From Candidatus Methanoperedenaceae archaeon (GTDB taxonomy: Archaea > Halobacteriota > Methanosarcinia > Methanosarcinales > Methanoperedenaceae), in assembly GCA_963753595.1 (NCBI GenBank), contig CAVWCX010000036.1, positions 64,001 through 128,000 of the forward strand: a DNA stretch of 64,000 nucleotides. Reading direction: 5' to 3'. The position numbers and the translations under genes were made by a program. The stretch's first letter is position 1, and each line of letters opens with the position of its first letter. Shown here one piece after another: positions 10,017 to 63,360 of the stretch. The notes beneath the pieces were generated by a model. That model was not told where the DNA came from, did not search any database, and saw only the letters and a program-made list of their open reading frames with translations.

Positions 10017-11425
10017 GGTGGTTACCAAGACACCCTTGAAACCATTGGTAGATTTTTTTTCACCTCCTATGTGAGATATGCAACCGAAGAGAGATTTTCT
10101 TTTATACCATGCTGCAATCGTGCAAATGCTACTGCCAGCATGGCAATACAGCATTCTGTCACGTGAAGATCAATATTCTTCATACCTTTACCATTCAAAT
10201 GTACCTCAACTTCAAGGTGATCTTTCAGATAGCTATTGATTCCTTCGTTGCTGTTTCTTCTATGGTAGAGATCAAGAACATTATCGGGACACTCATCATA
10301 TTTATTCATATAGTCATTTCTAAAATACATGGCAACAGGGTCATGAAATCCCTTTTTGACCAGAAATTGCATCTTATATTCTAGAGAAGCATCTTTCTTA
10401 TATTTTGAATCTTGCCAATTTTTTCTATAGAGATAATTAATCTCCTGTTCAGGGGAGTAGATATAGGTTTTTCCATTAAACCTATGCTCGTATTTTACAT
10501 TTTCTCTCCAATCCTTGTCAATATGATAATGTGACATCAAACCCATTTCAACATGAGCAAATGCAATGTTTTTGTTGCTGTTATAACCGCCATCGAACCA
10601 AGTCTCTTCCATGTTCATCCCGGCAGATACTGCTGTCTTTCGGAGCATATCTTCAAGATATTTATCATCATCTTCAGTTCCACCGCATACCTTTTTGGCC
10701 AGAGGAATATTGTGCTCATAATCCATGGTTATTTGTGCTTTGACCATCTTTTTCTTATAATGGCCATTGTATTTTCCATCAGGATCGTTATGTGTCTTGA
10801 TTGGAGTACTATCTGTTCCAGTGCATTTTCCAATTTTTAAATCCAATCGGTTACCAGCTTCTACAACCTTTATACAAAAAAGTTGCATTATAGAATCCAT
10901 CCCCTTATTACCCAGTCTCACTTTTTCGAAATGCCTCAAAGTTTCATGATCTGGAACTATGATATTTTCATCCGGATCAATATTGAAACCCAATTCTAGT
11001 GCCTCATCAGGATGTGTTCTTAAGTTTCTTTCCTCTTTCGTATAATATTTTATTGTCTTTATGTTTCTCCAGATAAATGCCTTTACCATTGCCCTTCTTG
11101 GATAGGTTTCCACTCCTTCTTTAACGGTATAATGCTTGTTGATTTCAGGCATTATCGGATCCAGGTTTAATCCTTCCAGAAATTTTGATGCCCGAACGCT
11201 GTTCTCGGAGGTTGCATCTGCAAACTCTTCATTATTTGCATCGGTTTGACCGATGAATTTGTTCCAATAGCTTTTTATTTGCTTATCAACATTAAACTCC
11301 ATTGTTCATCCCCTCTTTGGAATTTTGTGATTAAAATAATAATGGGGGGATGAATAATATAAATCTTACTGCAAGTATAAAAAATAGTTAAATTTATAAG
11401 GCAAACCTATGAATTGGTAACCACC
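10017..11425 (-). mobile_element. insertion sequence, IS4/IS5-like DDE type
   Basis: Perfect 12-bp TIR GGTGGTTACCAA (10017-10028 / 11414-11425) and 5-bp TSD ATAGA on both sides. Confidence 0.92.
10067..11302 (-). CDS. DDE transposase
   Basis: DSTPI, WFDGGY, Y.RRNSNEGIN motifs; lies within TIRs. Confidence 0.9.
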   Translation of the reverse strand: MEFNVDKQIKSYWNKFIGQTDANNEEFADATSENSVRASKFLEGLNLDPIMPEINKHYTVKEGVETYPRRAMVKAFIWRNIKTIKYYTKEERNLRTHPDEALELGFNIDPDENIIVPDHETLRHFEKVRLGNKGMDSIMQLFCIKVVEAGNRLDLKIGKCTGTDSTPIKTHNDPDGKYNGHYKKKMVKAQITMDYEHNIPLAKKVCGGTEDDDKYLEDMLRKTAVSAGMNMEETWFDGGYNSNKNIAFAHVEMGLMSHYHIDKDWRENVKYEHRFNGKTYIYSPEQEINYLYRKNWQDSKYKKDASLEYKMQFLVKKGFHDPVAMYFRNDYMNKYDECPDNVLDLYHRRNSNEGINSYLKDHLEVEVHLNGKGMKNIDLHVTECCIAMLAVAFARLQHGIKENLSSVAYLT

Positions 11426-23985: not shown

Positions 23986-24369
23986 AATTTCACCTCTTTT
24001 TTTAGTCGGCATTTTGCCGGTAAGAACTATTACGCTTATCATGAATTTAAGCAAACTTACTGTCTAATAATATTTTAAAGTGCATTCTTACCCGGAAAAG
24101 TGTTAAATAATTTATAATCGTCCTATTTCCTTTATATAACCTTTATAACAGATAAAACAGGGAAAAGAACTATTAAAAACAAAGAATTGTTGGTGATCCT
24201 GCCTGAGGCACAACTCCGCTGAAAATATAATATTACTTAGACGTGGGGTCAAGGGGTAGAGAACCCTGCGCCCTTCGAGGGCGCAGATGAATCGTACCCC
24301 TGCTTATAGATTAGTTTCACACCACTCTATCATAAGGGCTATATGTATTCAGAACTATGTCTATGCTGC

Positions 24370-25530
24370 ATGAAAATAACGTATCAGTTCAGGATATACC
24401 CTAACAAAAATCCAGAGGTTATCATGAATAGAACTCTATCTACATGCAGAAAACTCTATAATGAAAAACTTGCAGAACGAAAGAAGCAAGCAGAGCTTAA
24501 TCGGTTGAGAAAATCATTTGATGTTTTTCCGTGGGGAAAACCGGAATGGATAGACTATTATGAGCAGAAACTTGGTTTAACAGCTACCAAAACACTATTT
24601 CAAAAAGAAGTCCATTCTCAGGTACTCCAAGATGTGATCAAAAGGGTTGATCGAAGTTTCAAGAATTTCTATAAGGGTTTCGGCTATCCACGGTTTCAAG
24701 GAAGAAATAGATACAATAGTTTTACGTATCCCCAATCGGGTTTTGAACTGAAAGATGGAAAACTCATTCTCTCTAAGATCGGGGCTATCAAGATCGTCCA
24801 GCACCGGGAAATCGAAGGTAAAATCAAGACCTGTACCATCAAGAAGGATATTGACCAATGGTATGTTTCCTTTTCATGTGAAATCGAAGAGCATATCCCG
24901 GTTGAAGTCAAAACCAAAACAGGAATAGACGTTGGATTAATCGACCTGATAACCCTGAGTAACGGGGAACAGGTCAAACCGCCGAAGTTCCTGCGGGAAT
25001 CAGAGGATAAGCTGACACAGGAACAGAAGCGGTTAAGCCGGAAAAGGAAAGGGTCAGGGAAAAGGAATAAGCAGCGGGTGATAGTATCAAAAGTACATAG
25101 AAAAATCAGGAATCAAAGAAAAGATTTTGCTCATAAGACCAGCAAGGTTCTTGTGGATTCCTATGACCGTATCGTGTTTGAAGATTTGCAAATAAAGAAC
25201 ATGGTGCAGAACCATCATCTTGCCAAATCCATATCCGATGCAGGCTGGCATCAATTAATGCAATTCACGAAATCCAAGGCAGAATGTGCCGGGAAAACAG
25301 TTGAATTCGTTAATCCGGCTGGAACATCCCAAACCTGTATCTGCGGATATCCTGTACCGAAAGACCTTTCAGTGAGGATACATCGGTGTCCTTCCTGTGG
25401 TCTTGTCATGGGAAGAGATCAGGTATCTGCAATATTAATCGAAAATAGATGTACGGTAGGAACTACCGGAATTAACGCCCGTCAAGGATATCTCGTAGTA
25501 TCAATGCAGCGGGACGCTCCGTGGCTTTAG
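24370..25530 (+). CDS. tnpB: TnpB RNA-guided endonuclease
   Basis: YQFRIYP, GYPRF, RuvC GIDVG / VFEDL / RD, Zn finger TSQTC.CG...CPSCG. Confidence 0.95.
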   Translation: MKITYQFRIYPNKNPEVIMNRTLSTCRKLYNEKLAERKKQAELNRLRKSFDVFPWGKPEWIDYYEQKLGLTATKTLFQKEVHSQVLQDVIKRVDRSFKNFYKGFGYPRFQGRNRYNSFTYPQSGFELKDGKLILSKIGAIKIVQHREIEGKIKTCTIKKDIDQWYVSFSCEIEEHIPVEVKTKTGIDVGLIDLITLSNGEQVKPPKFLRESEDKLTQEQKRLSRKRKGSGKRNKQRVIVSKVHRKIRNQRKDFAHKTSKVLVDSYDRIVFEDLQIKNMVQNHHLAKSISDAGWHQLMQFTKSKAECAGKTVEFVNPAGTSQTCICGYPVPKDLSVRIHRCPSCGLVMGRDQVSAILIENRCTVGTTGINARQGYLVVSMQRDAPWL

Positions 25531-27259
25531 AGGTTGACCGACATTTGATATCAAATACAGTTTATTCAAGCAATGTTTCAGCAATAATTGCCTAATTTTT
25601 CAGACAAACAAAAAAAAACGATACTTCTTCTCCAATTTAACATCTTACTTCAATAAATCCATTCAAAAAGTTCCACATTCTTCTCAGGTTTGAAGCAATG
25701 CAGGTAAGATTGAACTCAATTTTCGCCCCATTAATCCCTCTCAACAGAAATTCCCTGAACCCAAGATTCCTCTTGATATGACCAAAGATGCACTCCACGA
25801 CCTTTTTCCTCGTCTGATATGTCAATGCTCCCTCTTTTGACATCAATTTAGAAGCCATCTTCCTTCTTTCCTCTTCCATCCCCTCATAATTCTTGATCAC
25901 TTTTCCATCCCGAGAGTTCTTTGAACATTTTTTACGATCAGGACATTGCTTACACTGAGTGCCTTTATAAATCCGCACATTTCTGTTTTTGGCAATATCC
26001 ACATACTCAAAACGGAACGTCAGTTTCTGATTATTGGGGCAAATGAAACAATCTTCTATCGGGTCATAATCGAAATTCTCTTTACCGAATGGGTTTTCTG
26101 GTTTTCCTTCATTTTTGTTCAGGTTTGATGCCGTTTTTTCATCCGGGATATAGCCATCCAGCTTTTTTTTCTTCATGAATTTGAGATTCTTGCTGCTTGA
26201 ATATCCATTATCAGCACTCACCTTCGTACCTTCCGGAAGGGTTCCAACATTCTCTTCTGCCTGTATTATCTGAGGCTGAAGCTGATTTGCATCCCTTACC
26301 TCTGACGTGACATCGTTGGAAATGATTATCCCAAAAGAAGAATCCGCTGTTATCTGAGGATTATAGGAATATTCAGTGACCTTCTTGTTATTTGGCATGA
26401 ACCTGCTTTCAGGATCAGTAGCACTGATGGCACTCTCTGATTTTTCGATTTCTTTTTCGATCTTATCAACCTGTTTCTTGATTTTTTCTTTTTGTTCTTT
26501 GCTCCCTGACTGATATTTCTCTTTCAATTTTTCCGCTATCGTTTTGTCAAAGATGTTATCTGGCAGCTCATCGATATTCTTATCACCATGGATCCTGTCC
26601 TCTTCCTCGTCTATTCTGATGCCTTCTTCCAGTTCTCTTTCAACGAGTTCCTTCAATTTTAAAAAATCATCTTTTGTTACTGCACTGTGATTTGATGCAT
26701 TGGCTTTTATTTTTGTTCCATCAATGCATATGTGACCAAGAGATACCATGCCAAGATCTTTTGCGAATTTTACAACTTCATGAAATGATGATTTGACCAT
26801 TTCAAGATTGTTTTTCCGAAAGTCGCTTATCGTCCTGAAATCAGGTTGGAGAAGACCTGCAAGGTAAATGTATACCACGTTCTCTCTAGCATTTTTTGCT
26901 ATTATCCTTGATGAACGTACTCCATCTATTTGACCCAATATCAGAAGCTTGAGGATGAGTTTTGGATGATATGCGGGGTGTCCTGCTCCTTCGTATTCCT
27001 TTTCGATATCAGATAGATCCATATTCTGGATTATTTTATCAACCAGATGGCAGATGTGATTTTTTGGTATCATATCACGAATGTTTGGAGGTAAGAGCAG
27101 TTCCTGGTCTTTGAGGTCTTTATAGAAAGTCATATTTATTTAAAAACTGTATTTGTATGATATAAATGTTTTGAAATTATTTCGCAAGCAATGGGCTTGA
27201 TTATAATTTGGAATTATGGAAAAATCGGAGAGTTTTTCAGTTAATTATCGGACAGCCTC
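25530..27259 (-). mobile_element. IS1182-family element
   Basis: Imperfect TIR GAGGTTGACCGACA / GAGGCTGTCCGATA (11/14); 5-bp TSD CTTTA at 25525-25529 and 27260-27264. Confidence 0.9.
25637..27133 (-). CDS. IS1182 transposase
   Basis: YHPK, PDFRTISDFRK, IDGTKIKANAS, DPESRFM, ADNGY, RKKVVECIFGHIK. Confidence 0.93.
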   Translation of the reverse strand: MTFYKDLKDQELLLPPNIRDMIPKNHICHLVDKIIQNMDLSDIEKEYEGAGHPAYHPKLILKLLILGQIDGVRSSRIIAKNARENVVYIYLAGLLQPDFRTISDFRKNNLEMVKSSFHEVVKFAKDLGMVSLGHICIDGTKIKANASNHSAVTKDDFLKLKELVERELEEGIRIDEEEDRIHGDKNIDELPDNIFDKTIAEKLKEKYQSGSKEQKEKIKKQVDKIEKEIEKSESAISATDPESRFMPNNKKVTEYSYNPQITADSSFGIIISNDVTSEVRDANQLQPQIIQAEENVGTLPEGTKVSADNGYSSSKNLKFMKKKKLDGYIPDEKTASNLNKNEGKPENPFGKENFDYDPIEDCFICPNNQKLTFRFEYVDIAKNRNVRIYKGTQCKQCPDRKKCSKNSRDGKVIKNYEGMEEERRKMASKLMSKEGALTYQTRKKVVECIFGHIKRNLGFREFLLRGINGAKIEFNLTCIASNLRRMWNFLNGFIEVRC

Positions 27260-39763: not shown

Positions 39764-41462
39764 GATGTTGCGAAACATATCTTAGTGGTGTTGTGAGGGC
39801 TTAGGGGCATGATTTCTCCGCAACGTGCAGTCACTCAATCCCAGACTTAACAGGCTAAATATAAAGTATTTACTATTCATGTATTTTTAAATATGTAACT
39901 CATTTTCATGAGTAAATCATTTGAAAATTCCCCGTGCCGTAGAATGCCTTCATTGTAAGGCTATTGAGAAAGTAAAGGTCATAAAATAAAAGATATACGC
40001 AGTTTTTACCAGGCTTTTATTAGAAAACAACATCCAGAGACGATATAACCTACCCTCACCCAGATCTCTTATAATTGGTTCCATAAATGAGCTATGAGCG
40101 ATTATTTTGTGTGTGGATAGGGTTTGGTATGCATGATAAGGATGCCTGTAAAAAGTGAATTTATTTCGGGGTTTAGTCAAACACCCGCCTATTTCTGAAT
40201 TGGTTATCTCAAACATAAAAACTAAAAGAAAAAAGGTTAGATTGTTCGTGATGTTTTTTTATAAAACTGTTCGATAACAAATCATCAAAAATTTCAACTT
40301 TCATGTTGTCAATAAAATCATTAGCACTTTTTAAATTCTTTATATCTTCTTTTTTAATTCCAATAATATCACTTTTGACTTCGGATATAAAGTTAATATT
40401 TAAAAATAACATCTCAATAAGTTCATTAGCAACAGCTTCTTTATTAATTTTCTCTAAAATTTCCATCCTTTTTATTGAGAAAAATTGTTTATATGCTTCC
40501 AATAGCTCTGCATATATTGAATCATTATTATCTCCTGCAATTTCATCCTCTAATAACTTATATTCATCTTGTTTGAACGGTGGCATCAATTGAGGGTATA
40601 TGTTAATTTCTTTTCCCGGCATTCTTGCTAATGTAAACTGAACCAATTTCAATTTGTGCTTAGATGTGTCATATTCTTTAGTAATTTTATCAAACGTCTT
40701 ATTTAGTTTAGTAAAATTTTTATTTTTATTTAAGAACTTTTTAAAATTACCAAATGAAACTTCTTTATCTGAAATTGATACCAACATATTCATTTTTAAT
40801 GACAGTTTAGTTTGAATCTTATCTTCATATCTTTGAATATAATATTGAAAAAACCCCGTTAAAATACCAACAAGTCCTATTATATTGTAAAAATTAGGCG
40901 GTATTTCTTCATTCAGAAGAATGTATCCATAATTAATGAATACTGCTACAGAAAACATCCAAATTATCAAAGTAAATAATAGATATTGAATGCTGTTTAA
41001 AAAAATAATTCTTAATAATAAAATTAGAATGAGAACTAGTTTACTCATGTAAAATCTGCGGTATATGTGGAAAGGTAAATTCACAACAGAGAAAATTATA
41101 CTTTTTAAATAATTAACAATATTGATTATAATATTCCATTTCATTGATTTTAAATTTGATATTATTATACATAGTATTTTATTTATACTTCTTATAAAGA
41201 AAATAATTATATCTAATTTTATCAAAATCAAATTTAACAAGAAAATTAGTAAAAATTGTATTAATGCTACTTCAATAAATTGATTGACCAAATAGAATAC
41301 TACTAAATTCGAAATAAAGAATGAGATTAAATCAAATATTTGCAGGAGGTATTTACCCTCCAAAAATAATTGCGTGAATGAATCCCCTTGTTGAGACATT
41401 TATTCTCTCCTTATAGTTGGTCCCCAGGATTCTTGACTTTCTGCAAAATGTTTCGCAACATC
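39764..41462. mobile_element. transposase-less cassette bounded by perfect 15-bp inverted repeats
   Basis: GATGTTGCGAAACAT at 39764-39778 and its reverse complement at 41448-41462. Confidence 0.6.
40209..41399 (-). CDS. very AT-rich multi-TM membrane protein of unknown function
   Basis: Several hydrophobic helices followed by a soluble C-terminal domain. Confidence 0.6.
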   Translation of the reverse strand: MSQQGDSFTQLFLEGKYLLQIFDLISFFISNLVVFYLVNQFIEVALIQFLLIFLLNLILIKLDIIIFFIRSINKILCIIISNLKSMKWNIIINIVNYLKSIIFSVVNLPFHIYRRFYMSKLVLILILLLRIIFLNSIQYLLFTLIIWMFSVAVFINYGYILLNEEIPPNFYNIIGLVGILTGFFQYYIQRYEDKIQTKLSLKMNMLVSISDKEVSFGNFKKFLNKNKNFTKLNKTFDKITKEYDTSKHKLKLVQFTLARMPGKEINIYPQLMPPFKQDEYKLLEDEIAGDNNDSIYAELLEAYKQFFSIKRMEILEKINKEAVANELIEMLFLNINFISEVKSDIIGIKKEDIKNLKSANDFIDNMKVEIFDDLLSNSFIKKHHEQSNLFSFSFYV

Positions 41463-41499
41463 CTGTGTTTTTTTTTTGTTGGCATAATTTTACATTCCA

Positions 41500-41841
41500 T
41501 TAGTCTGGAAGCCCTACTTCAGTCGTTGCATCAGCCAATAGATGAAATACATATCCAAGGAAAAAACTTGAAATAATATAGAAGGTAGAAAAAAATAGAC
41601 CAACTAAAGTTGCTGTAGCTAAAATTTTCCCTGTTAGTTTTAAAGCCCTTTTACTATGACCTAAGCCTCTATGCATCCAACTTGTAGGCGGTTCTAAAAT
41701 ATCTGGAATAATAGAACCTAAGACAACAGCTATAAATGCATAAGTGATCGCTTCAGTAGAAATTTTAATAATTATATATATAAAATAAGTATACAAAAAA
41801 AATGCAACCACTCCTATTGTTAAGTGCTGTTGCTTATTCAT
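41500..41841 (-). CDS. YdjM-like membrane metal-dependent hydrolase (short)
   Basis: H, GSIIPD, HRGLGHS, GYVFHLLAD motifs. Confidence 0.8.
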   Translation of the reverse strand: MNKQQHLTIGVVAFFLYTYFIYIIIKISTEAITYAFIAVVLGSIIPDILEPPTSWMHRGLGHSKRALKLTGKILATATLVGLFFSTFYIISSFFLGYVFHLLADATTEVGLPD

Positions 41842-42224
41842 GTATTTTTTGCAGCTTGTATCGCTCGATACATCTCTAAAATATCAGACCTTTCTCCATT
41901 GATTTTGAACTGATTTAGCTTAAGATGCATTTTCTTGAAAACAATTCCTTCTTCAACCATATTGTAAGATGTTATTTGATTAAGTGGTATTTCATTAATT
42001 ATATCGGATTTGAATATTAATCCCGCTCTTTTATAAAAGATAATTCGATTTTTTGTTACATAGCCCTTAAAACCCGCTGCTATATCGTTATTATTTGTCC
42101 CTACATACAAATTACCTATTGTTGCATAAATAAGCATTTCATTCGGCATTAGGAATTTTTCTATTCCAAGACCAGACAATCTTGAAGTTTCGCTTACAGT
42201 TTTTTTTAAAATTTCTTGAACCAT
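41838..42224 (-). CDS. bacterial PH-domain (bPH_3-like) protein
   Basis: L..NE, YVTKNRIIFY..GL...EIPLNQITS. Confidence 0.7.
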   Translation of the reverse strand: MVQEILKKTVSETSRLSGLGIEKFLMPNEMLIYATIGNLYVGTNNNDIAAGFKGYVTKNRIIFYKRAGLIFKSDIINEIPLNQITSYNMVEEGIVFKKMHLKLNQFKINGERSDILEMYRAIQAAKNT

Positions 42225-49626: not shown

Positions 49627-50247
49627 TTATGTTGTCTTAAACGCTACCGGGTGCTTGAATGTCAGCGTGAAGGTTTCCATTGCGATTCCGCCTGCTTCCA
49701 GACTGTCGTTCATCTCGTTTACCCTGGCTTCCTTGTATATTCGGTAGCTTATCGGAGTGGTATTTGAGTACTTTTTTGCGATGACCATGTAAGCGTCGTT
49801 TTTCGCACAATCAGTAAACTTGGTCATCAGGTCGTGGTTTGTTGCCTGCGCGAACGCTATGTTCAATGCTCCAGATCTTTGCACCACATCCACGGTCACA
49901 GCATCGTTGCCCAGCTCTGCTATCTCTATGGTCTTTGTTGATACCTTCATCTGGATTGCCTGCTGGACGCTGTATGCGCCGTTTTTGATTTTTGGCATAT
50001 ATACCTGGACTATCTGCCCTACTGTGCATGCCGGAATGGCCACTACGGCAGGAGTCGCAGACGATACTGTTATGTCGGCTGATGCGACCTCTACATTATC
50101 CACATAAACCCTGGTGTATTCCGGAGTTGTCTCCCCGGCTTTGTTTGCCATTGTGAAATCTGTCTGCGCTGCGGTTGCAGTGAATTCTTTAAACTCAGCG
50201 TCATAGGTTTCTATGACGACATTTTTGCCTTTAGTTACCTGTACCAT
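49627..50247 (-). CDS. putative tail tube protein
   Basis: IEIAELG...SGALNI...IYKEARV...MET.TLTF tube-like pattern; N-terminal Ig-like insert. Confidence 0.6.
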   Translation of the reverse strand: MVQVTKGKNVVIETYDAEFKEFTATAAQTDFTMANKAGETTPEYTRVYVDNVEVASADITVSSATPAVVAIPACTVGQIVQVYMPKIKNGAYSVQQAIQMKVSTKTIEIAELGNDAVTVDVVQRSGALNIAFAQATNHDLMTKFTDCAKNDAYMVIAKKYSNTTPISYRIYKEARVNEMNDSLEAGGIAMETFTLTFKHPVAFKTT

Positions 50248-50305
50248 ATTTTGAAGTCTCCTTTCAAAGAGTGTATGCTCTTTTTATTATGATATGTGGG
50301 GGATT

Positions 50306-50345
50306 GTATTTAAAAGTAACTTACTATTGTAATATCTAAGTAATA
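50306..50345 (-). promoter_or_regulatory. internal viral promoter for the tail tube operon
   Basis: ATTACAATAGTAAGTTACTTTTAAATA on the minus strand; shares GTAAGTTA with 60557 and 63379. Confidence 0.55.
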
Positions 50346-50534
50346 TAACTGGCATCGGGCTGAAGGCGCCGAGGCATCTCATCCCCGTTGCAGGTGGGTA
50401 GTTAAAGTATTACTTATTTTGGTATTTAACGACAAAAGGGGCAAGAAATAAAAAGATTTAATGGAAAATAAGAATAAGCTGAGCTTCAATTTGGAGATTT
50501 ATTATGAATTTTCGATTTGCAGGTTTTTCTTATA

Positions 50535-52127
50535 TTATGTCAATAAATCTACAACTTTTTGTGCTTTTTTTCTGGAATATTCACTTTTATCTGTCTCAGC
50601 AATTCTCTTTAATAGTGGTTTGTATTCAATGATAGATGTTGAATTTCCTTTTGCAATCATTCCTAAACTATCTATGTAAGCATCTTTAAGCCATTCTTTT
50701 TGGTCTACTCCCAACATTTTTTCAGCTGACAAATCCATTGTAATAACTATTTCTTTTGTCTTGATTTTTAAAGGTTCTCTTTTTGTGACTTCAGTCGGAT
50801 TATTAATATAATCAACCATTATTGGAATTGCCTCTTTGATCGGATTTACATCTTTTAAGCCTATTTTACCAAGATTAAAAGCTGCAAATCGTCTAGAATT
50901 CCATTCAGGGCTTTCCTTGATTGTTCTAATCAAATGCGGAATCAGAGGTTTTACCCAGTTAATATTTATTTCCCCTAACTCGCCTATAATGTTACTTGTA
51001 ACATATTTTTCAAAATTTTGCTGAATACGATTTACATAGTCTATGACTAAGGCTTCAAATATTTGGTTATCTTTTTTTACTAAAAGAATCAGCAAAGATT
51101 CAGCAGCATTTGATATATTTATTTCATTTGATTTCAATAGGTTTTCGACCAAAATTCTTAGTTTTTCGGGATTTTTAATCAACTGTTTCTTTGGGTAATA
51201 ATATGATTTTAAGTTAAGAACTATCTGAGTTGCTCTTTGATGGTTTTTCTTTTTAATAAATTCTTTAATTTCTGTGAATAAGAGATCATAATCCTCCATA
51301 TCTAAAAGATTAATTTCCTTATTCATTTGGATCTCATAAGTGAATTTCTTCCAAGCTTCATTTGAAGAAACAGGCATATCTTTAATTGGTTTCATTTCTT
51401 CATTAATAGTGCAAAATATATTTTCAGCTTCATTTTCCGAGAGATTTAATTCAGAGATTAAATCCTGAATTCTGTTGACAACTCCTGGAGCCAAGAAACT
51501 CATTTCTGCATTAAATTCTCTTATTCCAATTTCATCCATTTCTTTTTTTGACAATGGCTTTCCATTACAAGATCCAACATTCCTACATCCATTTAAATCA
51601 AGATAACATACTTCAAAATAGGTTTCTAAAGCTTCTTTTAATTTTTCTTCTTCTTTTAATTGTTCAGCCATATGGAATTTGTTGTTTCTGTAGAGTCCCC
51701 ATTGTTTTGTTGAGGCAAATTTGATAATTCTCTCATTAAATAATCTCCATTTTATGTCATTTATTGAAGGTTCTTTGCCAAACTGTTTTGTTAATTCTTT
51801 TTTGGCTTGCACATATTCTGGATCATTCATCAATTGCTCTTCTTCTTTAGTTTTGGATTGAAGATTCCACTGTACCTCGATTTCATCTTTTTGTTTATCT
51901 GTGACTAAAACCTTTTTTCTATCAATGGGTCTAGTTCTAACATAGATTTGCTTCCCACAAAATTCGCATTTCTTCTTTCTTGTGGGTATATGTTCAAGCA
52001 TACTTTGGCAATATGGACATCTATTAATTTCACCCACCTTATCTATGTTTGAGCTTTTAGGAAGGGGATTAGTATTGGATATTTCCTTATTAACCGAACT
52101 TCCAAATAATTTCTTTAAAAAATCCAT
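50535..52127 (-). CDS. Zn-ribbon + helical + HEAT-repeat protein
   Basis: CPYC..CEFC at the N-terminus; WNSRRFAAFNLGKIG and YSRKKAQKVV HEAT-like C-terminus. Confidence 0.65.
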   Translation of the reverse strand: MDFLKKLFGSSVNKEISNTNPLPKSSNIDKVGEINRCPYCQSMLEHIPTRKKKCEFCGKQIYVRTRPIDRKKVLVTDKQKDEIEVQWNLQSKTKEEEQLMNDPEYVQAKKELTKQFGKEPSINDIKWRLFNERIIKFASTKQWGLYRNNKFHMAEQLKEEEKLKEALETYFEVCYLDLNGCRNVGSCNGKPLSKKEMDEIGIREFNAEMSFLAPGVVNRIQDLISELNLSENEAENIFCTINEEMKPIKDMPVSSNEAWKKFTYEIQMNKEINLLDMEDYDLLFTEIKEFIKKKNHQRATQIVLNLKSYYYPKKQLIKNPEKLRILVENLLKSNEINISNAAESLLILLVKKDNQIFEALVIDYVNRIQQNFEKYVTSNIIGELGEININWVKPLIPHLIRTIKESPEWNSRRFAAFNLGKIGLKDVNPIKEAIPIMVDYINNPTEVTKREPLKIKTKEIVITMDLSAEKMLGVDQKEWLKDAYIDSLGMIAKGNSTSIIEYKPLLKRIAETDKSEYSRKKAQKVVDLLT

Positions 52128-52129
52128 TA

Positions 52130-53869
52130 TTACAGCTCAATTATTTTACCAGCAAAATTTTTAAACTCTTGATGATATGGTCTATGAGAAATTAGAATTA
52201 TTTGTTTATTTTTTGCTATCTCTTGTATCGTATTCATGGTCTTAGCCAATCGTACATTATCAAAATTATGAAAAGGATCATCTAAAATAAGAGGTATATT
52301 TGTATTTCCACTTAATAAATCAGACATTACAGTTCTTAAGGTAAAGTATAATTGATCTTTTGTCCCCTGACTTAAATAAGAAACATCAATATATTCTTTA
52401 ACTTCCGATTCTTTAATTTTAATATCTAAAGTATCTTCTTCGATTTTCAAATCAGAATACCTTTCATTGGTTATTTCTTTTAAAATTTGCTTTGAATTTT
52501 TTTCGATTGCGGGGGTAAATTTATGGTGGACTTCGGATTCGGCTAATTCTAAGAAATGAGCTGCCAATCTATATTCTTCAACTTTTCTTTTTAATTCACT
52601 TTGATTTTCTTCAATTAAATCTAATTTCTCTTTAACTTCTTCAGGACTTTCAATAAGTGTTGTAGTTGTTTTAATACTTGTTCGTAACTCTACTTTTCTC
52701 GATTCTAATGATTTCACTTCTTTTCTTAGTGTTTCCAGTTCATCAAAATCATTTATATTAAAGTTTACGAGTTTATAATTCTCTAATCTATTTTCGTAAA
52801 TAGCTTTCTTATTAATTAGATCCTTTTTCTCAGAACTGTATTTTTGTAGTTTTCCATTATCTTTTTGAACTGGTTTTTGTATCTCTTCTTTTTGTCTTAT
52901 TTTGATTATTCCCCAAATTATTAAAGGAATACCAATTATAGCGCCAACACTGACTAATGATATTAAACCACCAATTAAGAAGCTTAAACTGCCAATTACA
53001 ATTAAAATAATCCCTATGGTTTTATCAGAGGTTGTTTTGGTGGAAATTTCTCTATCTTCTGATAATGTCTCTATTAATTCATCCACCTTTTTTATTTGTT
53101 CATTAAGATGTTTATCTTCACCTAATAATTTTTCTTTTTCGTCAAATAACTTGTTATTTTTTTCTAGATTTTCCAATTTTGTTACTTTCTCGGCAAGTTT
53201 AGTACCTATGCCTTCGAGTTCTCCACTATCCTCTATTACCAATCCCCTTGTTTTTTCAACAGATTTTAATTCCTCATTTAATTCGCCTTTTTCTTTGTCT
53301 AAAATATCAATTTCTTTGAAAGAATCTTTTGCTACTTTGTTTATTTTTGCAAGTGCCTTAGTCGCAGAAGATTCAGCCCTACCAGCAAAGACCTCTTCAA
53401 TCATATCCTTAATTTTATTTTTAACTAAATTATCTTCTAATATGGCTATTTGTGATTGTCTAATAAATGCAGTGTTTTCAAAGACTTTTCTATCATCAAA
53501 ACCAAAATGTTCTTTTAAAAATGGGTTTATATTTTTATCAGTTGTTGCAATCTCCTTCATTTTGCCATTTTCCATTTTTTCAAGTCTTCTTTTTCCAGAT
53601 TTATAATCCGAAATTATTTTAAAAATCTCAGCTTTATCTGTTTTATATGTTAAAGTAGTTCTACAAAATTCATTGTTTTTCCAACAGAAAAAAGGTTGAA
53701 TTTGAGATTTTGTATATTTGAAAATAGAAGCCGATATCGCTTCTAATACTGTGCTTTTTCCAGCTTCATTTAAACCTGTGATAAAATTTATTCCCTCATC
53801 AAAATCTATGGGAGTTTCTTTTGCAAATTTTCCGAACCCTTCAATTTCTAATTTTATTAATTGAACCAT
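52130..53869 (-). CDS. Rad50/SbcC-like (YhaN-type) ATPase with central transmembrane hairpin
   Basis: GLNEAGKST, FIRQ, LSQGTKDQLY, LILDDPF..FD, ISH; coiled coils flanking two TM helices. Confidence 0.88.
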   Translation of the reverse strand: MVQLIKLEIEGFGKFAKETPIDFDEGINFITGLNEAGKSTVLEAISASIFKYTKSQIQPFFCWKNNEFCRTTLTYKTDKAEIFKIISDYKSGKRRLEKMENGKMKEIATTDKNINPFLKEHFGFDDRKVFENTAFIRQSQIAILEDNLVKNKIKDMIEEVFAGRAESSATKALAKINKVAKDSFKEIDILDKEKGELNEELKSVEKTRGLVIEDSGELEGIGTKLAEKVTKLENLEKNNKLFDEKEKLLGEDKHLNEQIKKVDELIETLSEDREISTKTTSDKTIGIILIVIGSLSFLIGGLISLVSVGAIIGIPLIIWGIIKIRQKEEIQKPVQKDNGKLQKYSSEKKDLINKKAIYENRLENYKLVNFNINDFDELETLRKEVKSLESRKVELRTSIKTTTTLIESPEEVKEKLDLIEENQSELKRKVEEYRLAAHFLELAESEVHHKFTPAIEKNSKQILKEITNERYSDLKIEEDTLDIKIKESEVKEYIDVSYLSQGTKDQLYFTLRTVMSDLLSGNTNIPLILDDPFHNFDNVRLAKTMNTIQEIAKNKQIILISHRPYHQEFKNFAGKIIEL

Positions 53870-53873
53870 TTTA

Positions 53874-54968
53874 TCACAATTTTTTATCTAAATATCCTAT
53901 GCCTATTCTCAAAGCATTTTCCAATCTTTTTTTCTTTTCAGAATCTTTCTCCTTTTCGATTTCGGCTTTGATTAATCTTATGAGATTGCCTCGTATAGTT
54001 TCATCTTCGGTGAGATTCTCTGGTAAATGAATGTTATCCACAATTTTGAGGAAGAAATATTTTTCATCAAATTCCTTTAATAAGAGTTCAATATCGAGAT
54101 TAAGATCTAATGAAGGGAGCCCTTTAAGAACCAATCTTAAAACCTTTCTTTCGCCCTTATTTTTTTCAAGAATTTTTCTCATCTCGGAATCTGATTCAAA
54201 ATTTGTACAATCAATCTCCAGCGTTTCAAATTCTCGTATGTTAGTTTTTATTGGTTTAACAGTAACATTACCTTCGTTATATGAAGCTAATATAACTGAA
54301 CAATCTTTTTTATTCTTAAATGTCAGTGGTTCGGGAGTTCCTGAATAGAAACATTTGGTCTTACTTTTGATCTCTAAAATATCATGAAAATGCCCCAATG
54401 CAACGTAATCCAATTTGCAATTATCCAAATCAGTTGTTGTTATTCTCCTATAGCCTGCTTCTGGCTGTTCATCCCAATTAATATCAGTTATAGAACCATG
54501 AATTAATCCAACCTTGAAATTATCGGAGTCTTTTGCTTTAAATCCTTTGAGAGGTTCTTTTGTATCATCCATGTATGCCAAGCCATAAACAGTCAGCCCA
54601 TCTATTTCTTTAGCTTCTAAATCGGGCGAATCAAAAATAAGAATATTTGAAGGGAACTTATGTTCCAACCAGGGGCTTCCTTTTTTGTAAGGATCATGAT
54701 TTCCAGAAGAAATAAAAACAGTAATTTTTTCTTTGTTTAATCTTTCAAATTCGCTAATTACAAATTTTACTAATGATTTCTGTGGCTCAGCCGTATCAAA
54801 TAAATCTCCTCCAATCAGCAAAGCTTTTACCCTTTCTTTTATACATAAATTAATAATATTCGAGAATACGTCTTGGCAGTCATTTCTGTGAAGTTTAGAT
54901 TTGTCTCCAAGAACTTTAAATGTGGCTCCTAAATGAAAATCAGAGGTATGAACAAGTTTTATATCCAT
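53874..54968 (-). CDS. Mre11/SbcD-like (YhaO-type) metallophosphoesterase nuclease
   Basis: HTSDFHLG, GGDLFD, GNHD, IHG, ALGHFH, YSGTPE. Confidence 0.92.
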   Translation of the reverse strand: MDIKLVHTSDFHLGATFKVLGDKSKLHRNDCQDVFSNIINLCIKERVKALLIGGDLFDTAEPQKSLVKFVISEFERLNKEKITVFISSGNHDPYKKGSPWLEHKFPSNILIFDSPDLEAKEIDGLTVYGLAYMDDTKEPLKGFKAKDSDNFKVGLIHGSITDINWDEQPEAGYRRITTTDLDNCKLDYVALGHFHDILEIKSKTKCFYSGTPEPLTFKNKKDCSVILASYNEGNVTVKPIKTNIREFETLEIDCTNFESDSEMRKILEKNKGERKVLRLVLKGLPSLDLNLDIELLLKEFDEKYFFLKIVDNIHLPENLTEDETIRGNLIRLIKAEIEKEKDSEKKKRLENALRIGIGYLDKKL

Positions 54969-55282
54969 AATCCTACAGTTTAAATATATACGGTTGTATA
55001 TATAGACTTGCCTTTAAGTTTTCATTGGGTCTTGCAAAGCAGGCGAACCTACTCTTCAAAAATTTTGGAGTCTTTTATCTCAAAAAAATAATTCAGGAGA
55101 GTGCTTATTGATTTTGAATCTCTTTATAGTTGTATTCGTGCCCATTTTTGCACCACTAATTGTTCCTCTGATTAAGACATTCCAACGGAATCACGAGAAC
55201 GAACATATGTTGCAATCACTAAACTCCGTATGATGTATGAGGCCTATTTATAGCGTTTTTTACAAGCGAAGCAATAATAACC

Positions 55283-56005
55283 TTAGTAATAAGCATCATT
55301 CCACGTTACACCTATTGCACAGTTATGGCTCGAACCTGGTTCATCGCTGTAAACGAATGTATTCTCCCCAGCATCTGCCTCCGGCACTGTACCGCTTATG
55401 TTGCCCGCTCTGCTGCCATTTATTGACACTGTGCCATCCTTCGATATGACCATTACATCGCCCGGGTTGAGTGTTCCGTTCCACTCCATCTTATCTTGTC
55501 CATTGCTTATTGCTGGATTTATGATTGTGCCGATAGCGGTCAGAGTCCATTCTGGCGTTGTCGGCGCACGGCCGTCTGACGTTAGCTGAATATCCACTGG
55601 TGATGATGTTACTGCCACTGTTGCTGAATCCCTTGCTATACTGTATTCCCTTGTGTCAGCCGCCAGCATTGTTATTGTGATCTTGCTATCTTCTGGTTTT
55701 AGTATATCCAGTATCTTTTTGAAGCCCAGTGACAGCAACGTTATCTTTCTTTCAGGATAGAGTTTCAGGATTTTCTCTGTGTTATCGAATAACACTTTTC
55801 TCAGGTTCAGGTATATCTCATCATTGCTGACATATCCTTCCCAGATAATTGTCCTCAAACCCCTATCGTCTCTGGCAAACTGCCTGTTGTCCTCCCCCAA
55901 TTTGGGGATCGTATCAGTTTCAGGTTCCGTAGAATCAGTGATCCTGTGAGTGAATTGAACAAGATTTATTCCATTCAGCTCGAAATATTTACATTCCAGT
56001 GTCAT
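55283..56005 (-). CDS. distal tail (Dit)-like protein
   Basis: DGRAPTTP..T.....INP.I, GTL.PGD...I, GENTF, WNDAYY siphoviral tail pattern. Confidence 0.7.
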   Translation of the reverse strand: MTLECKYFELNGINLVQFTHRITDSTEPETDTIPKLGEDNRQFARDDRGLRTIIWEGYVSNDEIYLNLRKVLFDNTEKILKLYPERKITLLSLGFKKILDILKPEDSKITITMLAADTREYSIARDSATVAVTSSPVDIQLTSDGRAPTTPEWTLTAIGTIINPAISNGQDKMEWNGTLNPGDVMVISKDGTVSINGSRAGNISGTVPEADAGENTFVYSDEPGSSHNCAIGVTWNDAYY

Positions 56006-56006
56006 G

Positions 56007-56375
56007 TTAGCTCGTTGTTGATGACATACGCAGCCTCTTACTTCCTGTAATCTCAAACCGTCCGGTTCTCAGGTCTTCCAGCATCGCCTCTCCCTTCTTC
56101 TCGTAGTAGTTCATTACATCCGGTTTTATGAGCGCGCTATTTGAACCGCGTTGAATATCCCGCATCGCCTGCGCCGTGCTCTTGAACTTGCTGATCTTCT
56201 GTATCAACTGCGGCCTGTCGGCAAAAGGCGTCGTGTATCTTCTGTATAAGGAGGCATCGATCTCTGCATCTACGCCTGTTATGATCTTGATTATTTCAGC
56301 ATCGGTTATCACAGCTTCATTGCCGATGTCGTTCTCTTCGAATACTTCCCTGATCTCATCAACTGTGGAATACAT
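56007..56375 (-). CDS. head-tail adaptor (gp36/DUF1320-like)
   Basis: MYSTVDE...DAEIDASL..RYT.PF...P. Confidence 0.75.
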   Translation of the reverse strand: MYSTVDEIREVFEENDIGNEAVITDAEIIKIITGVDAEIDASLYRRYTTPFADRPQLIQKISKFKSTAQAMRDIQRGSNSALIKPDVMNYYEKKGEAMLEDLRTGRFEITGSKRLRMSSTTS

Positions 56376-60691: not shown

Positions 60692-61162
60692 ATGAACACA
60701 TCACACATTTACCCAGGAGCACATACGTTAAACGCAGACATTACTATCAAAGGATGTAATGATGCTATTGAATTCTATAAAAAAGCATTTGGCGCGACAG
60801 AAAGAGGGAGGATCCTCATGCCCGACGGTTCAATCGCCCATGCAGAAATAGAGATTGAAGGTTCACTGCTTATGATGGCAGAAGAAAAACCTTCTTTGAC
60901 AAATAAAAGCCCAACAACCCTCGGCGGAACTCCTCTTATATTAGCTTTATATGTGAAGGATGATGATACTGTTTTTAAACAAGCTATGGATGCGGGAGCA
61001 ATGCAAGTAAGGCTAATAATAGACGAGTTTTATGGAGACAGGGTTGGACATGTCATTGATCCGTTTGGATATGTATGGATGATAGTAACCCATAAGGAAG
61101 ATATGAGTTTTGAAGAAATGCAAAAGAGAGCAGATAAGATGTTTGGAGAAATTAAAATATGA
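60692..61162 (+). CDS. VOC/glyoxalase (PhnB-like) protein
   Basis: AIEFYKKAFGA.E, HAEI.I, FYGDR.G...DPFG..W. Confidence 0.92.
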   Translation: MNTSHIYPGAHTLNADITIKGCNDAIEFYKKAFGATERGRILMPDGSIAHAEIEIEGSLLMMAEEKPSLTNKSPTTLGGTPLILALYVKDDDTVFKQAMDAGAMQVRLIIDEFYGDRVGHVIDPFGYVWMIVTHKEDMSFEEMQKRADKMFGEIKI

Positions 61163-61175
61163 CTGACAAAGACAA

Positions 61176-61628
61176 ATGAGAGATAAACGATTTATTGCAG
61201 AACATCGGGGCGGACCTCTAACAAAGGAACAGCACTATCAGTTAATTGAATGGGCTTGCGACTGTGCGGAGAATGTATTGCATCTCTTCGGTGAAAAAAT
61301 AGATGAGCGACTAAAAAATGCACTAAATGTGGCCAAAGAATGGAAACAAGGAAACGCCTCGGTTGGTGTCGCAAGAAAAGCTTCATTAGGTGCAATTGCG
61401 GTAGCGAACGAAGCTTCAAACCCGACTGCAATTGCAGTGGCTCGTTCTGTTGGACACGCTGCTGCAACTGCTCATATGGCTGACCATTCATTAGTCGCAG
61501 CGTTGTATGCTTTGAAAGGCGTGAAAAATGCAGGTAAATCAATAGATGCAGAAAGAAAATGGCAAAACGAACAATTGCCATCAGAAATTAGGGAGCTTGT
61601 CCTAACTGCAATAAGTAAGAAGGTGTAA
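61176..61628 (+). CDS. Imm5-like putative immunity protein
   Basis: WACDCAENVL, ARSVGHAAATAHMADH, ERKWQ..QLP. Confidence 0.8.
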   Translation: MRDKRFIAEHRGGPLTKEQHYQLIEWACDCAENVLHLFGEKIDERLKNALNVAKEWKQGNASVGVARKASLGAIAVANEASNPTAIAVARSVGHAAATAHMADHSLVAALYALKGVKNAGKSIDAERKWQNEQLPSEIRELVLTAISKKV

Positions 61629-61639
61629 TAAATAATCAT

Positions 61640-61930
61640 ATGGAAACATACATCATTTTATTGCGCGCAGTTATGCCAACAGGTAAGAACAAGGTTCCAA
61701 TGGCCCAGCTTCGTGTGACGCTAGAGAAAGCGGGGCTTAAGAATGTACGAACATATATCCAGAGTGGCAATGCTATCGTCAAATCAAGCATGAAGGCATC
61801 AGATATAGAGAAGCTAGTACATCAAGTTATCAAAAATGATATCGGCGTCGATATTATCGTTGTTGCAAGAATTGCTACTCAATTTGGTAAAATTGTAGAA
61901 AACAACCCCTTTTTTGGAGAAGATACCTTT
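61640..61930 (+). pseudogene. DUF1697 protein, C-terminally truncated
   Basis: LLRAV..GKNKV.MA.L, VRTYIQSGN, NPF, then the frame runs into the antisense strand of the portal. Confidence 0.75.
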
Positions 61931-61965
61931 TTTTCATGTCGCCAAAAAAAAAGGATTCAGGTAGC

Positions 61966-63360
61966 CTATGCAGTGAGTTTTGTCTGTGGGTCTGCCTCTG
62001 TTGGTCTCGATGATTTGGCTGTACCCATCGGCGCCGGTGTGCTGCTTGCCTTCTGAATTATCTGCAATAAAACTGTCTGCTCTGTGGTGAGCTTCGGCAG
62101 GCCATCCCTTTCCCTTATCTCATCCGGTGTTCTTGTAAACGACTTGACCTTCTCCGTATCTATCTGCGCCTGGAGTTTCAGTGCCCCAAGGCGTTCTGCT
62201 TCTGTCATCTCATACGGGCTATTCCATCGGATGCTCCACTCACCCGTATCCCCTGATAATCTCATAAGTACTGTTTTTAAGACACCTGATATCGCATTCT
62301 GTTTGGCTACTACTTTGCTATAGTAGGTGCTGCGATCCAACTGGCTGCCTGTTACTGCCCCCGTTGACAGGCCATACAATATTGTCTTGGGGTATTCTGT
62401 GACCCCAGCCAGTTGCTCCATCATCTTCTCGAAATATGGTGCAGGATTCAATACCGCGCCAGCCGTATTCAGGATGTTTGCTTTATAGCCGTCGGGAAAA
62501 GCAAGTACGGTTTTAGCGTTTATATCACCCAGCGAATCAAGAGCTGCCTCCCTGTCCTCTTCATTCGCATCTGGCGGCATATCTATCCCCAGTAATCCAC
62601 CGCCTACGCGCCACATGGTCTGGCCTGCACTCCACAGCATATTTTCAACTATCGTGATTATATTGTACGGTCGGTCTAATGCTGACACCCCAATACCCCA
62701 GCGGTTCTGCCTGTCACCCCAGTACTCCTGGAGTCCCGGATTCTCTATTATGATAACTCTTGACACATCAATAAGTGCACTTGTGCCAAACCTGTCTGTC
62801 AGGAGTCTGAATTGCTTTATCTTTAAAGGGAAGGTTACGAAACCATTCTTATCCGCCGTCTCATATACGACATCCTGTACCCATGTTTCGGGGATCGCCA
62901 TTATATATTCTACTTTACTTGTACTATCAGCGGGTTCGTTCAGTTCCTTATTATCCTTTATTCCCAGGAGCAGTACACTGAAGCCGTAAAGCCGTGACCA
63001 TTTCCATGCCTTGTCGAATTCTGCTCTTACCTTACTCTCATAAAGTTGTACCAGTTTCTCGGTCAGTTCCCTATCGGGATCCTCTTTTGTTAAGAACTTG
63101 TCTATGACAAACCCATTCTTCAATGCATCGTCAATGAGTTTGTCCACGATCGGACCGCCAATCCCCCGGTCATACATCTTCTTGCGGTTGGCATCTGTTA
63201 TAGTTTCGGTGAAAAGTGTATTTGTTGAAGACTTTCTCCTATTGGCGTTTGGTGTGCTATTTGGAAAGCCTGTTTTCTCTACGGTGCATACAGCGCTGTC
63301 GTTCCACAGTTTCTCCATTACATGCTTCTTTAACTCCTGCGCATCTTTGAAAACAGCCAT
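61966..63360 (-). CDS. portal protein (DUF1073-like)
   Basis: KWSRLYG.SV, WGIGVS, LAG.TEYP.TILYG, G, YYS.V...Q, W.I.WN. Confidence 0.85.
   Translation of the reverse strand: MAVFKDAQELKKHVMEKLWNDSAVCTVEKTGFPNSTPNANRRKSSTNTLFTETITDANRKKMYDRGIGGPIVDKLIDDALKNGFVIDKFLTKEDPDRELTEKLVQLYESKVRAEFDKAWKWSRLYGFSVLLLGIKDNKELNEPADSTSKVEYIMAIPETWVQDVVYETADKNGFVTFPLKIKQFRLLTDRFGTSALIDVSRVIIIENPGLQEYWGDRQNRWGIGVSALDRPYNIITIVENMLWSAGQTMWRVGGGLLGIDMPPDANEEDREAALDSLGDINAKTVLAFPDGYKANILNTAGAVLNPAPYFEKMMEQLAGVTEYPKTILYGLSTGAVTGSQLDRSTYYSKVVAKQNAISGVLKTVLMRLSGDTGEWSIRWNSPYEMTEAERLGALKLQAQIDTEKVKSFTRTPDEIRERDGLPKLTTEQTVLLQIIQKASSTPAPMGTAKSSRPTEADPQTKLTA

Follow-up and report, generated by a model that had tools for sequence, protein, structure and literature searches.

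The tail module of a head-tail provirus in the genome of a Candidatus Methanoperedenaceae archaeon is interrupted by an AT-rich cassette of three genes. Two of them encode a compact archaeal form of the Mre11/Rad50-type nuclease–ATPase pair, with a membrane hairpin standing where Rad50 has its zinc hook, while the third encodes a protein of 530 amino acids (aa), here called zn530, whose homologues by their gene neighbourhoods are repeatedly paired with four unrelated kinds of DNA-end machine. The stretch analysed, hereafter the window, comprises 64,000 nucleotides (positions 64,001 to 128,000 of the forward strand of contig CAVWCX010000036.1, assembly GCA_963753595.1). We read the cassette as a provirus-borne system that may act at the membrane to degrade DNA ends, and may in this way serve superinfection exclusion or defence; we give this reading a probability of about 0.5. 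The literature searched describes neither the compact provirus-borne pair nor the partner pattern of zn530, and holds no account of the pair as an antiviral system or of the zn530 family; work on the classification of ABC ATPases, which lay outside its coverage, may bear on the pair and may already class membrane-anchored Rad50-like clades. The cassette and its parts have the following window coordinates.

50351..55275, no strand: AT-rich cargo cassette of 4925 bp with a GC (guanine plus cytosine) content of 0.303; its ends are the homology breakpoints against six related provirus loci.
53874..54968, minus strand: metallophosphoesterase nuclease of the Mre11/SbcD (YhaO/SbcF-like) kind, 364 aa, from family matches and five phosphoesterase motifs invariant in 11 relatives.
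52130..53869, minus strand: short ABC ATPase of the Rad50/SbcC/SbcE(YhaN) type, 579 aa, from family matches, motifs, an AlphaFold2 (AF2) model and Foldseek.
52898..53026, minus strand: transmembrane hairpin of the ATPase (residues 282-324) at the coiled-coil apex, from hydropathy, AF2 helices, invariant columns and a weak DUF5362 match.
50535..52127, minus strand: zn530, the third gene, 530 aa, with a zinc ribbon plus helical N-domain (residues ~28-272) and an ARM/HEAT solenoid (~273-530), from homologues, alignment, AF2 and fold matches.
51957..52019, minus strand: zinc ribbon of zn530, CPxC...CxxC (C37, C40, C54, C57), the columns being invariant in 25 sequences.

What marks these genes as cargo? 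We compared the window with six related provirus loci from five genomes, three of the six loci having the far flank. In all six, DNA homology to the window ends at 55273-55276, and in the three with the far flank it restarts at 50344-50350; between the flanks these three hold other AT-rich DNA of 3.2, 3.65 and 1.85 kb, and the trio is present in none of the six. The slot is thus a true cargo hot-spot of the provirus and the cassette a precisely bounded cargo unit. Its composition is foreign: the nuclease, ATPase and zn530 genes have GC contents of 0.32, 0.28 and 0.30, against 0.45-0.48 for the flanking structural genes and 0.435 for the host-like left part of the window, so that the cassette lies 18 points under the virus (0.30 versus 0.48). 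The three genes run in the same direction on the minus strand, with gaps of 4 nt between nuclease and ATPase and 2 nt between ATPase and zn530. The two sides of the slot are formed by the following genes.

55283..56056, minus strand: conserved upstream flank, a Dit-like or tail-tube-like provirus gene, from family matches; 79-90% identical in related proviruses.
49627..50247, minus strand: conserved downstream flank, a 206-aa gene, followed by 124-aa and 2257-aa genes; the 206-aa gene is 87-97% identical in the three related proviruses with this flank.

The Dit-like gene matches PF22768 at 25.2 bits (cut-off 25) and phrog_33 (E = 2.2e-11), and a related gene occurs in 12 of the 53 genomes of the host family that were searched. 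Family searches gave no match for the 206-aa gene, and the 2257-aa gene is called tape-measure-like here by its size and position only. The head-tail type of the provirus follows from a portal gene (PF06381), a protease/scaffold-like gene (DUF2213; phrog_530), head-tail adaptor-like genes and the Dit-like tail gene. A preliminary description of this DNA, made from its sequence alone, had reported the 4 and 2 bp spacing, an AT-richness exceeding that of the virus and the interruption of the tail module in a provirus cargo slot; the measured gaps, the composition and the shared breakpoints bear it out on each count. It had also recognised an SbcD/YhaO-like nuclease with intact motifs, a 579-aa YhaN-like ATPase with two transmembrane helices at its apex and a zinc-ribbon/HEAT protein, and these identities, too, stand on the evidence given below.

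The slot resembles the P2/P4-type defence hot-spots of temperate phages and satellites in having conserved flanks around interchangeable, compositionally foreign cargo, as seen from one side in six loci and from both in three. It differs from them in belonging to an archaeal virus, in lying inside the tail module and in holding cargos that are candidates only. In two of the related loci (L070, 9473-12347; L075, 1763-4963) the cargo is a three-gene cassette in which the gene of a 426/427-aa AAA_22/BrxD-like (STAND-like) ATPase is accompanied by two genes for unknown proteins, and in two others it is a single gene (L071, 4217-5812, 531 aa; L072, 3625-5079, 484 aa). We consider these alternative cargos candidate defence genes, the best hint being the weak BrxD-like ATPase match.

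The nuclease scores 79.2 bits against TIGR00619 (sbcd; cut-off 77.65) and matches Metallophos with E = 1.3e-12, and its motif residues D10/H12, G54-D55, G89-N90-H91-D92, H157 and G192-H193-x-H195 are those invariant in the 11 relatives. It stays far under the best Mre11 equivalog model, at 92.6 bits versus a cut-off of 500. Could the pair be the virus's own replication or recombination nuclease, comparable to the SbcCD-like pairs of T4 and T5 and used in lytic growth for recombination-dependent replication or for breakdown of host DNA? Matches to the phage SbcD-like/SbcC-like families phrog_100 (E = 5.8e-21) and phrog_77 (E = 3.8e-21) fit this idea, as does the co-orientation of the cassette with the structural genes. 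However, the related loci lack the cassette and bear other cargo in its place, its GC content departs strongly from that of the virus, and it is sited in the tail module rather than in a replication module. Moreover, the pair also stands alone in chromosomes where none of ten provirus query proteins matched nearby, and no relatives were found in IMG/VR. We therefore hold a role as the virus's own nuclease to be very unlikely.

The ATPase exceeds the cut-offs of AAA_27, which is the YhaN-type domain (38.1 versus 22 bits), and of SMC_N (41.7 versus 40 bits), and Walker A, Q-loop, LSQG signature, Walker B and H-loop are all kept in its alignment. Its best structural matches in Foldseek are Rad50 (7zr1, 3auy, 5dny), Escherichia coli SbcC (7yzp) and LmuB (9hqu, 9uxh), with a best E of 4.8e-14. 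The only strongly hydrophobic stretch, at residues ~281-325, is modelled as two helices (282-302 and 306-324) with a three-residue link, placed between two long helical arms of ~100 residues each (helix 169-270; helices 338-466). There is no CxxC between the arms, and the weak DUF5362 match covers residues 284-343. Within the hairpin, the glycines of G309xxxG313 are invariant, as is G320, with P315 nearly so. Because GxxxG is a classical motif for the packing of helices against each other, the hairpin may both anchor the complex and replace the hook as its dimerisation point, so that two ATPases are probably paired through it inside the membrane.

Of the studied machines, SbcE and SbcF (YhaN and YhaO) of Bacillus subtilis come closest to the pair. 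According to the available part of the study describing them, SbcE has no CxxC, its central domain is hydrophobic and insoluble and bears a conserved proline at the arm tip, and its gene neighbours an SbcD-like gene (PMC2811018). The cassette shares the adjacent genes for an Mre11/SbcD-like nuclease and an SMC-like ATPase, here 4 nt apart, the YhaN-type N-terminal ATPase domain (AAA_27), and the hookless hydrophobic centre with its conserved proline (here 282-324 and P315). In size the two differ, the 579 aa and arms of ~100 residues found here contrasting with the 963 aa and ~300-residue arms given for SbcE in the same part of that study (PMC2811018). They also differ in setting: ours is archaeal or viral, SbcEF Gram-positive; the downstream gene is zn530 here and yhaM there; and a rare mobile cassette stands against a pair that the consulted text describes as conserved in the Gram-positive genomes analysed (PMC2811018). 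With canonical Mre11-Rad50/SbcCD the pair has in common the nuclease motifs, the ABC head fold and the gene order nuclease-ATPase, but it lacks the zinc hook, has far shorter arms and a membrane-hairpin apex, and scores far under the equivalog cut-offs (for the ATPase, 82 bits against the best Rad50 model versus a cut-off of 700).

No Pfam, NCBIfam, PHROG or PADLOC family matched zn530, the third protein, above cut-off; an indexed search yielded 59 homologues at 36-98% identity, and the AF2 model has a mean predicted local distance difference test (pLDDT) score of 86.8. Its N-domain combines the zinc ribbon of four invariant cysteines with a helical domain, WGLYRN and YLDxNG being invariant, and its C-terminal half, the only one matched by Foldseek and VIA, forms an ARM/HEAT solenoid (VIA Z 17.4, residues 272-530). 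A sequence profile search of the PDB found only designed alphaRep repeats, and all ESM Atlas scores were below 0.9, with HEAT, SEC-C and TPR proteins as leads. An exhaustive profile search returned 1357 clusters at E <= 1e-10; among the best 150, about 10 match the full profile, while most others are 205-350 aa long and cover positions ~1-265 only. To judge from these, the N-domain (window 51312-52046) is a large family in its own right, made up of stand-alone proteins of ~250 aa. None of the 120 short relatives listed bears a Pfam label, and the N-domain was found in 4 of 401 genomes of the Candidate Phyla Radiation (CPR). Two short proteins that match the N-domain only bear a precomputed, tentative Phage_Mu_F label. 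At four stand-alone loci (L085-L087, L091) the domain does not adjoin relatives of the nuclease or helicase queries; two neighbours in Photobacterium encode an acyl-CoA ligase and an amino-acid dehydrogenase, and two in CPR bacteria gave no PDB match.

To find the company that full-length zn530 keeps, we collected 31 loci from genome and metagenome scans and retained 19 distinct ones, dropping L028-L031 (C-terminal repeats only), L006, L014, L025 and L027 (too short or cut to show upstream genes), the exact duplicates L010 and L011 (of L009) and L022 (of L004), and the near-duplicate L013 (of L012). One of the 19, L007, is a twin of the window locus, with 98.5% identity. The partners are distributed as follows.

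Membrane-hairpin pair directly upstream: 7 loci (L001, L004, L007, L017, L021, L023, L024).
UvrD-type helicase fused to a PD-(D/E)XK nuclease (AddA/RecB-like, 882-1094 aa, below equivalog cut-offs): 7 loci (L009, L012, L015, L016, L019, L020, L026).
Divergent long SbcCD-like pair (414 + 965 aa): 2 loci (L005, L018).
Divergently placed NurA-HerA-Mre11-Rad50 operon: 1 locus (L002).
RmuC and DUF2779 only: 1 locus (L008).
No partner: 1 locus (L003).

Thus, zn530 adjoins a DNA-end resection machine in 17 of the 19 distinct loci, and these machines are of four unrelated kinds; the AddA/RecB-like loci often also carry RmuC or an AddB-like gene. In a maximum-likelihood tree of 20 zn530 proteins the partner types are mixed inside well-supported clades, and the well-supported branches imply at least three changes for the AddA label and at least three for the membrane-pair label. 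Conversely, zn530 follows the pair in only three of seven representative pair-bearing genomes. Since its partners are mixed and it is often absent, zn530 appears as a facultative, promiscuous companion of end-resection machines and not as a dedicated subunit of the pair, and the fixed trio envisaged in the preliminary description gives way to a pair with an optional third gene. In an ESMFold2 complex trial, nuclease and zn530 returned 'no answer', with a score of 0.00. A DUF2779 protein (weakly Cas4-like, ~488 aa) is encoded near the pair and/or zn530 in 7 of the 19 loci and may be a fourth component; the window cassette has no such gene, and a DUF2779 search of the host genome gave no match in a run whose control matched nothing either.

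DUF2779 genes: L001 3619-5088; L004 6464-7930; L021 2700-4145; L023 9998-11443; L024 3445-4890; L008 8305-9729; L005 1-1401.

As a separate observation, a ~470-aa protein with a weakly GHKL-ATPase-like N-terminus lies between ATPase and zn530 in L004 (3129-4553), and a protein of this kind (L028, 1519-2925; L029, 6203-7618) also adjoins the proteins of L028 and L029 that have the C-terminal repeats only, which have VRR-NUC genes as neighbours.

How widespread is the pair itself? An indexed search with the ATPase gave at least 302 clusters, mostly of 566-580 aa, together with a ~688-aa variant; by name their sources are Aenigmarchaeota, Pacearchaeota, Nanoarchaeota and Methanoperedens, the closest being Candidatus Methanoperedens. 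Together with the gene content of the window, these names suggest a Methanoperedens-like host. Close homologues of the pair (81-92% identity) are found in 4 of 49 genomes of the host genus, the window's own included, and a ~700-aa variant in two more. In each of the other three genomes the pair forms an AT-rich islet flanked by ordinary genes, no two of them at the same chromosomal site; none of these islets has the third gene, and none of the ten provirus proteins used as queries matched nearby. In a DPANN phylum sample of 401 genomes, in which the top candidates of each genome were scored, the ATPase was found in 2 and zn530 in 3 of those searched. Plasmids gave only distant, partial matches, those annotated 'YhaN family protein' covering 24% of the ATPase query. 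From this distribution the pair appears to be a rare, horizontally moving two-gene unit, the mobile core of the cassette, and carriage by a virus is unusual for its family. We also considered the pair as the host's sole Rad50 and rejected this, as the genome has other AAA_23/Rad50-like genes. One Rad50-like gene of the same genome, outside the window (contig C6, 92057-94360), lies in three pieces of 163, 220 and 415 aa, through either a broken gene or an assembly error.

These data also bear on an alternative suggested by the Bacillus relatives, namely a repair, recombination or DNA-uptake module that processes broken or incoming DNA for the cell, in break repair, transformation or nucleotide salvage, and rides on the provirus as beneficial or neutral cargo. 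SbcE and SbcF influence both the repair of breaks and transformation, and in competent cells they gather in polar foci, as stated in the part of the study at hand (PMC2811018). The YhaN-type score of the ATPase agrees with such a role, zn530 sits with AddA/RecB-like, SbcCD-like and NurA-HerA-Mre11-Rad50 genes, all classical recombination machines, and the family is commonest in DPANN-type archaea. However, the genes are far too rare for lineage-wide housekeeping or uptake (found in 2 and 3 of 401 genomes, and in 4 of the 49 from the host genus), they are always AT-rich relative to their surroundings in the Methanoperedens-like genomes and in L002, other proviruses fill the same slot with unrelated ATPase cassettes, and the host genome is already supplied with other Rad50/SMC-like genes. 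A service to the cell is on balance unlikely.

Rad50-like ATPases are also found in known defence systems. LmuB of Lamassu and JetC of Wadjet are, like the cassette protein, Rad50-like ATPases that possibly recognise DNA ends, and the LmuB fold matches given above are accompanied by weak PADLOC matches to LmuB. However, the LmuB match spans ATPase residues 2-129 only, the partners here are an Mre11-type nuclease and zn530, and PADLOC named no LmuA-, LmuC- or JetABD-type partner among the three cassette proteins, which places the cassette outside Lamassu. We know of no membrane anchor in either Lamassu or Wadjet. The word 'transmembrane' does not occur in the available part of a review (PMC10586767). 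Gabija, Septu and PARIS fare no better: nearly all GajA and PtuA matches are confined to the Walker A lobe (residues ~3-142); the AriA match of PARIS extends to residue 269 (E = 1.5e-5), and PADLOC found no GajB, PtuB or AriB among the cassette proteins.

What, then, could the cassette do at the membrane? In the scenario that we favour, it is a horizontally acquired accessory cargo, or 'moron', in a swap-prone slot of a head-tail provirus. We infer that the Mre11-type nuclease binds the Rad50-type ATPase to form a machine of the SbcF/SbcE (YhaO/YhaN) kind, whose heads the hairpin, in replacing the hook, would tether ~15 nm beneath the membrane. There, the complex could clamp onto incoming linear DNA and cut it at its ends, at hairpins or at blocked ends, and the circular chromosome would be spared because it has no ends. 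A lysogen could thereby exclude superinfecting viruses or other invading DNA. As a facultative add-on usable with any DNA-end resection machine, zn530 might recognise or unblock ends or regulate the nuclease; its ARM/HEAT solenoid suggests protein or peptide binding, and its zinc-ribbon domain suggests recognition of nucleic acid or of a partner. Attack on ends has a precedent, since the available part of a review presents Mre11-Rad50-type nucleases as a threat to linear viral DNA ends and Lamassu as a sensor of ends (PMC13685816).

An accessory or defence role is favoured by the hot-spot site, the rarity of the genes, their foreign composition, the intact motifs of nuclease and ATPase, the promoter- and terminator-like sequences inside the cassette and the defence-type neighbours. 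HsdR adjoins the trio in L001, the zn530 gene of L009 is flanked by a GmrSD-like gene and a gene like those associated with prokaryotic Argonautes, L026 has a type III restriction-modification pair and L005 a Dam gene; in L002, zn530 and the NurA-HerA-Mre11-Rad50 cluster share an AT-rich island (GC 0.32-0.39 versus 0.45-0.55). Homologues are thus not confined to housekeeping repair loci, the outcome that would have told against the preliminary description, but are rare, patchy, AT-rich and often placed beside restriction or other defence genes.

Several points weigh on the other side. The sole studied relative, SbcE/SbcF of B. subtilis, is tied in the consulted part of its description to double-strand-break repair and transformation, and not to immunity (PMC2811018). 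Phages have SbcCD-like nucleases that serve the phage itself (phrog_77 and phrog_100, E ~1e-21), and a role in recombination would explain equally well why zn530 is linked to AddA/RecB-like and NurA-HerA-Mre11-Rad50 genes. The pair lies among ordinary genes in the three other Methanoperedens-like genomes, next to genes for a GAPDH-like protein, CNNM, a glycosyltransferase and a radical-SAM enzyme. Viral contigs of IMG/VR gave no match to the ATPase or zn530, and GenBank phages gave none to zn530 and only matches of 13-27% coverage to the ATPase. No known defence family was recognised: as the preliminary description had expected, PADLOC found no full match, with partial hits to the ATPase lobe (LmuB, GajA, PtuA), a single weak match to residues 1-93 of the nuclease (E = 1.3e-4) and none to zn530. 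That description had gone further, proposing a DNA-end sensor with antiviral activity. Neither part stands as it was written: the sequence does not tell a sensor from a plain nuclease, and protection of the host is at present a conjecture, to be set against the repair and competence functions that the text consulted assigns to SbcEF (PMC2811018).

The beneficiary of such an activity could also be the virus instead of the host. If it were a weapon for counter-defence or for conflict between elements, the cassette would be directed at rival mobile elements or at DNA structures of host defence, or else zn530 would protect the nuclease against inhibitors. In favour of this, at least three cargo slots are present in the provirus, one of them with an Imm5-like immunity gene, and the Phage_Mu_F label on two N-domain proteins hints that viruses can use this domain; against it, no anti-defence family was matched. 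This proposal departs from exclusion or defence mainly in who benefits, a distinction that sequence cannot make. We grant it little credence.

A broader role for zn530 is conceivable. It could be a modular accessory for any DNA-end resection machine, whether SbcEF-like, SbcCD-like, AddA/RecB-like or NurA-HerA-Mre11-Rad50, that makes an immune nuclease of it, perhaps through recognition or removal of the proteins or structures guarding the ends of linear DNA that invades the cell. On this view, the cassette would be the first case of an 'end-resection immunity' carried by a virus, and the class would be common to DPANN archaea, CPR bacteria and archaeal viruses and would act at the membrane entry site. 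We regard this generalisation as speculative and rather improbable.

To our knowledge, very little is known about the defence genes of archaeal proviruses or about the roles of membrane-anchored SbcEF-type machines. The compact 579-aa version, its accessory context and the natural variants with and without the third gene make a direct test practical, and the partner pattern of zn530 draws attention to an unstudied family with a part in DNA-end biology. Should the defence reading hold, it would show that break-repair machines are recruited to the membrane to meet incoming DNA.

The borders of the cassette hold two further features.

54979..55005, minus strand: two TATA-like AT-rich boxes, 11-37 nt before the ATG of the nuclease, from sequence inspection; possible archaeal promoter.
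50433..50476, minus strand: T-rich runs 3' of the zn530 stop, from sequence inspection; possible archaeal terminator.

Given the usual spacing of archaeal TATA boxes, the boxes and T-runs together suggest that the cassette has its own promoter and terminator. A search of RNA data found two runs with part of the stretch, and four runs were aligned, as contigs only, which may stem from DNA carry-over and give no expression level. A 428-nt contig from an RNA library maps to 52900-53318 with 7 differences, and contigs of related viruses map to structural genes.

Elsewhere in the provirus, a second AT-rich cargo slot (window 40209-42224, GC 0.275) separates the 2257-aa gene from one of 653 aa. Its products are an unknown protein of 396 aa, a YdjM-like membrane hydrolase of 113 aa and a bacterial PH-domain protein of 128 aa, and PADLOC gave no match for any of them. 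A third insert (60692-62056), between the protease and portal genes and on the strand opposite to the structural genes, holds a glyoxalase-like gene, the gene of the Imm5-like immunity protein (PF21805, E = 2.8e-39) and a DUF1697 gene. The remainder of the window consists of archaeal methanogen-type genes, including those for F420 ligase, MTHFR and FtsZ, and among the host genes left of the provirus are three transposase genes (10067-11302, 24343-25530 and 25637-27133), two of the DDE type and one IS605 OrfB/TnpB-like.

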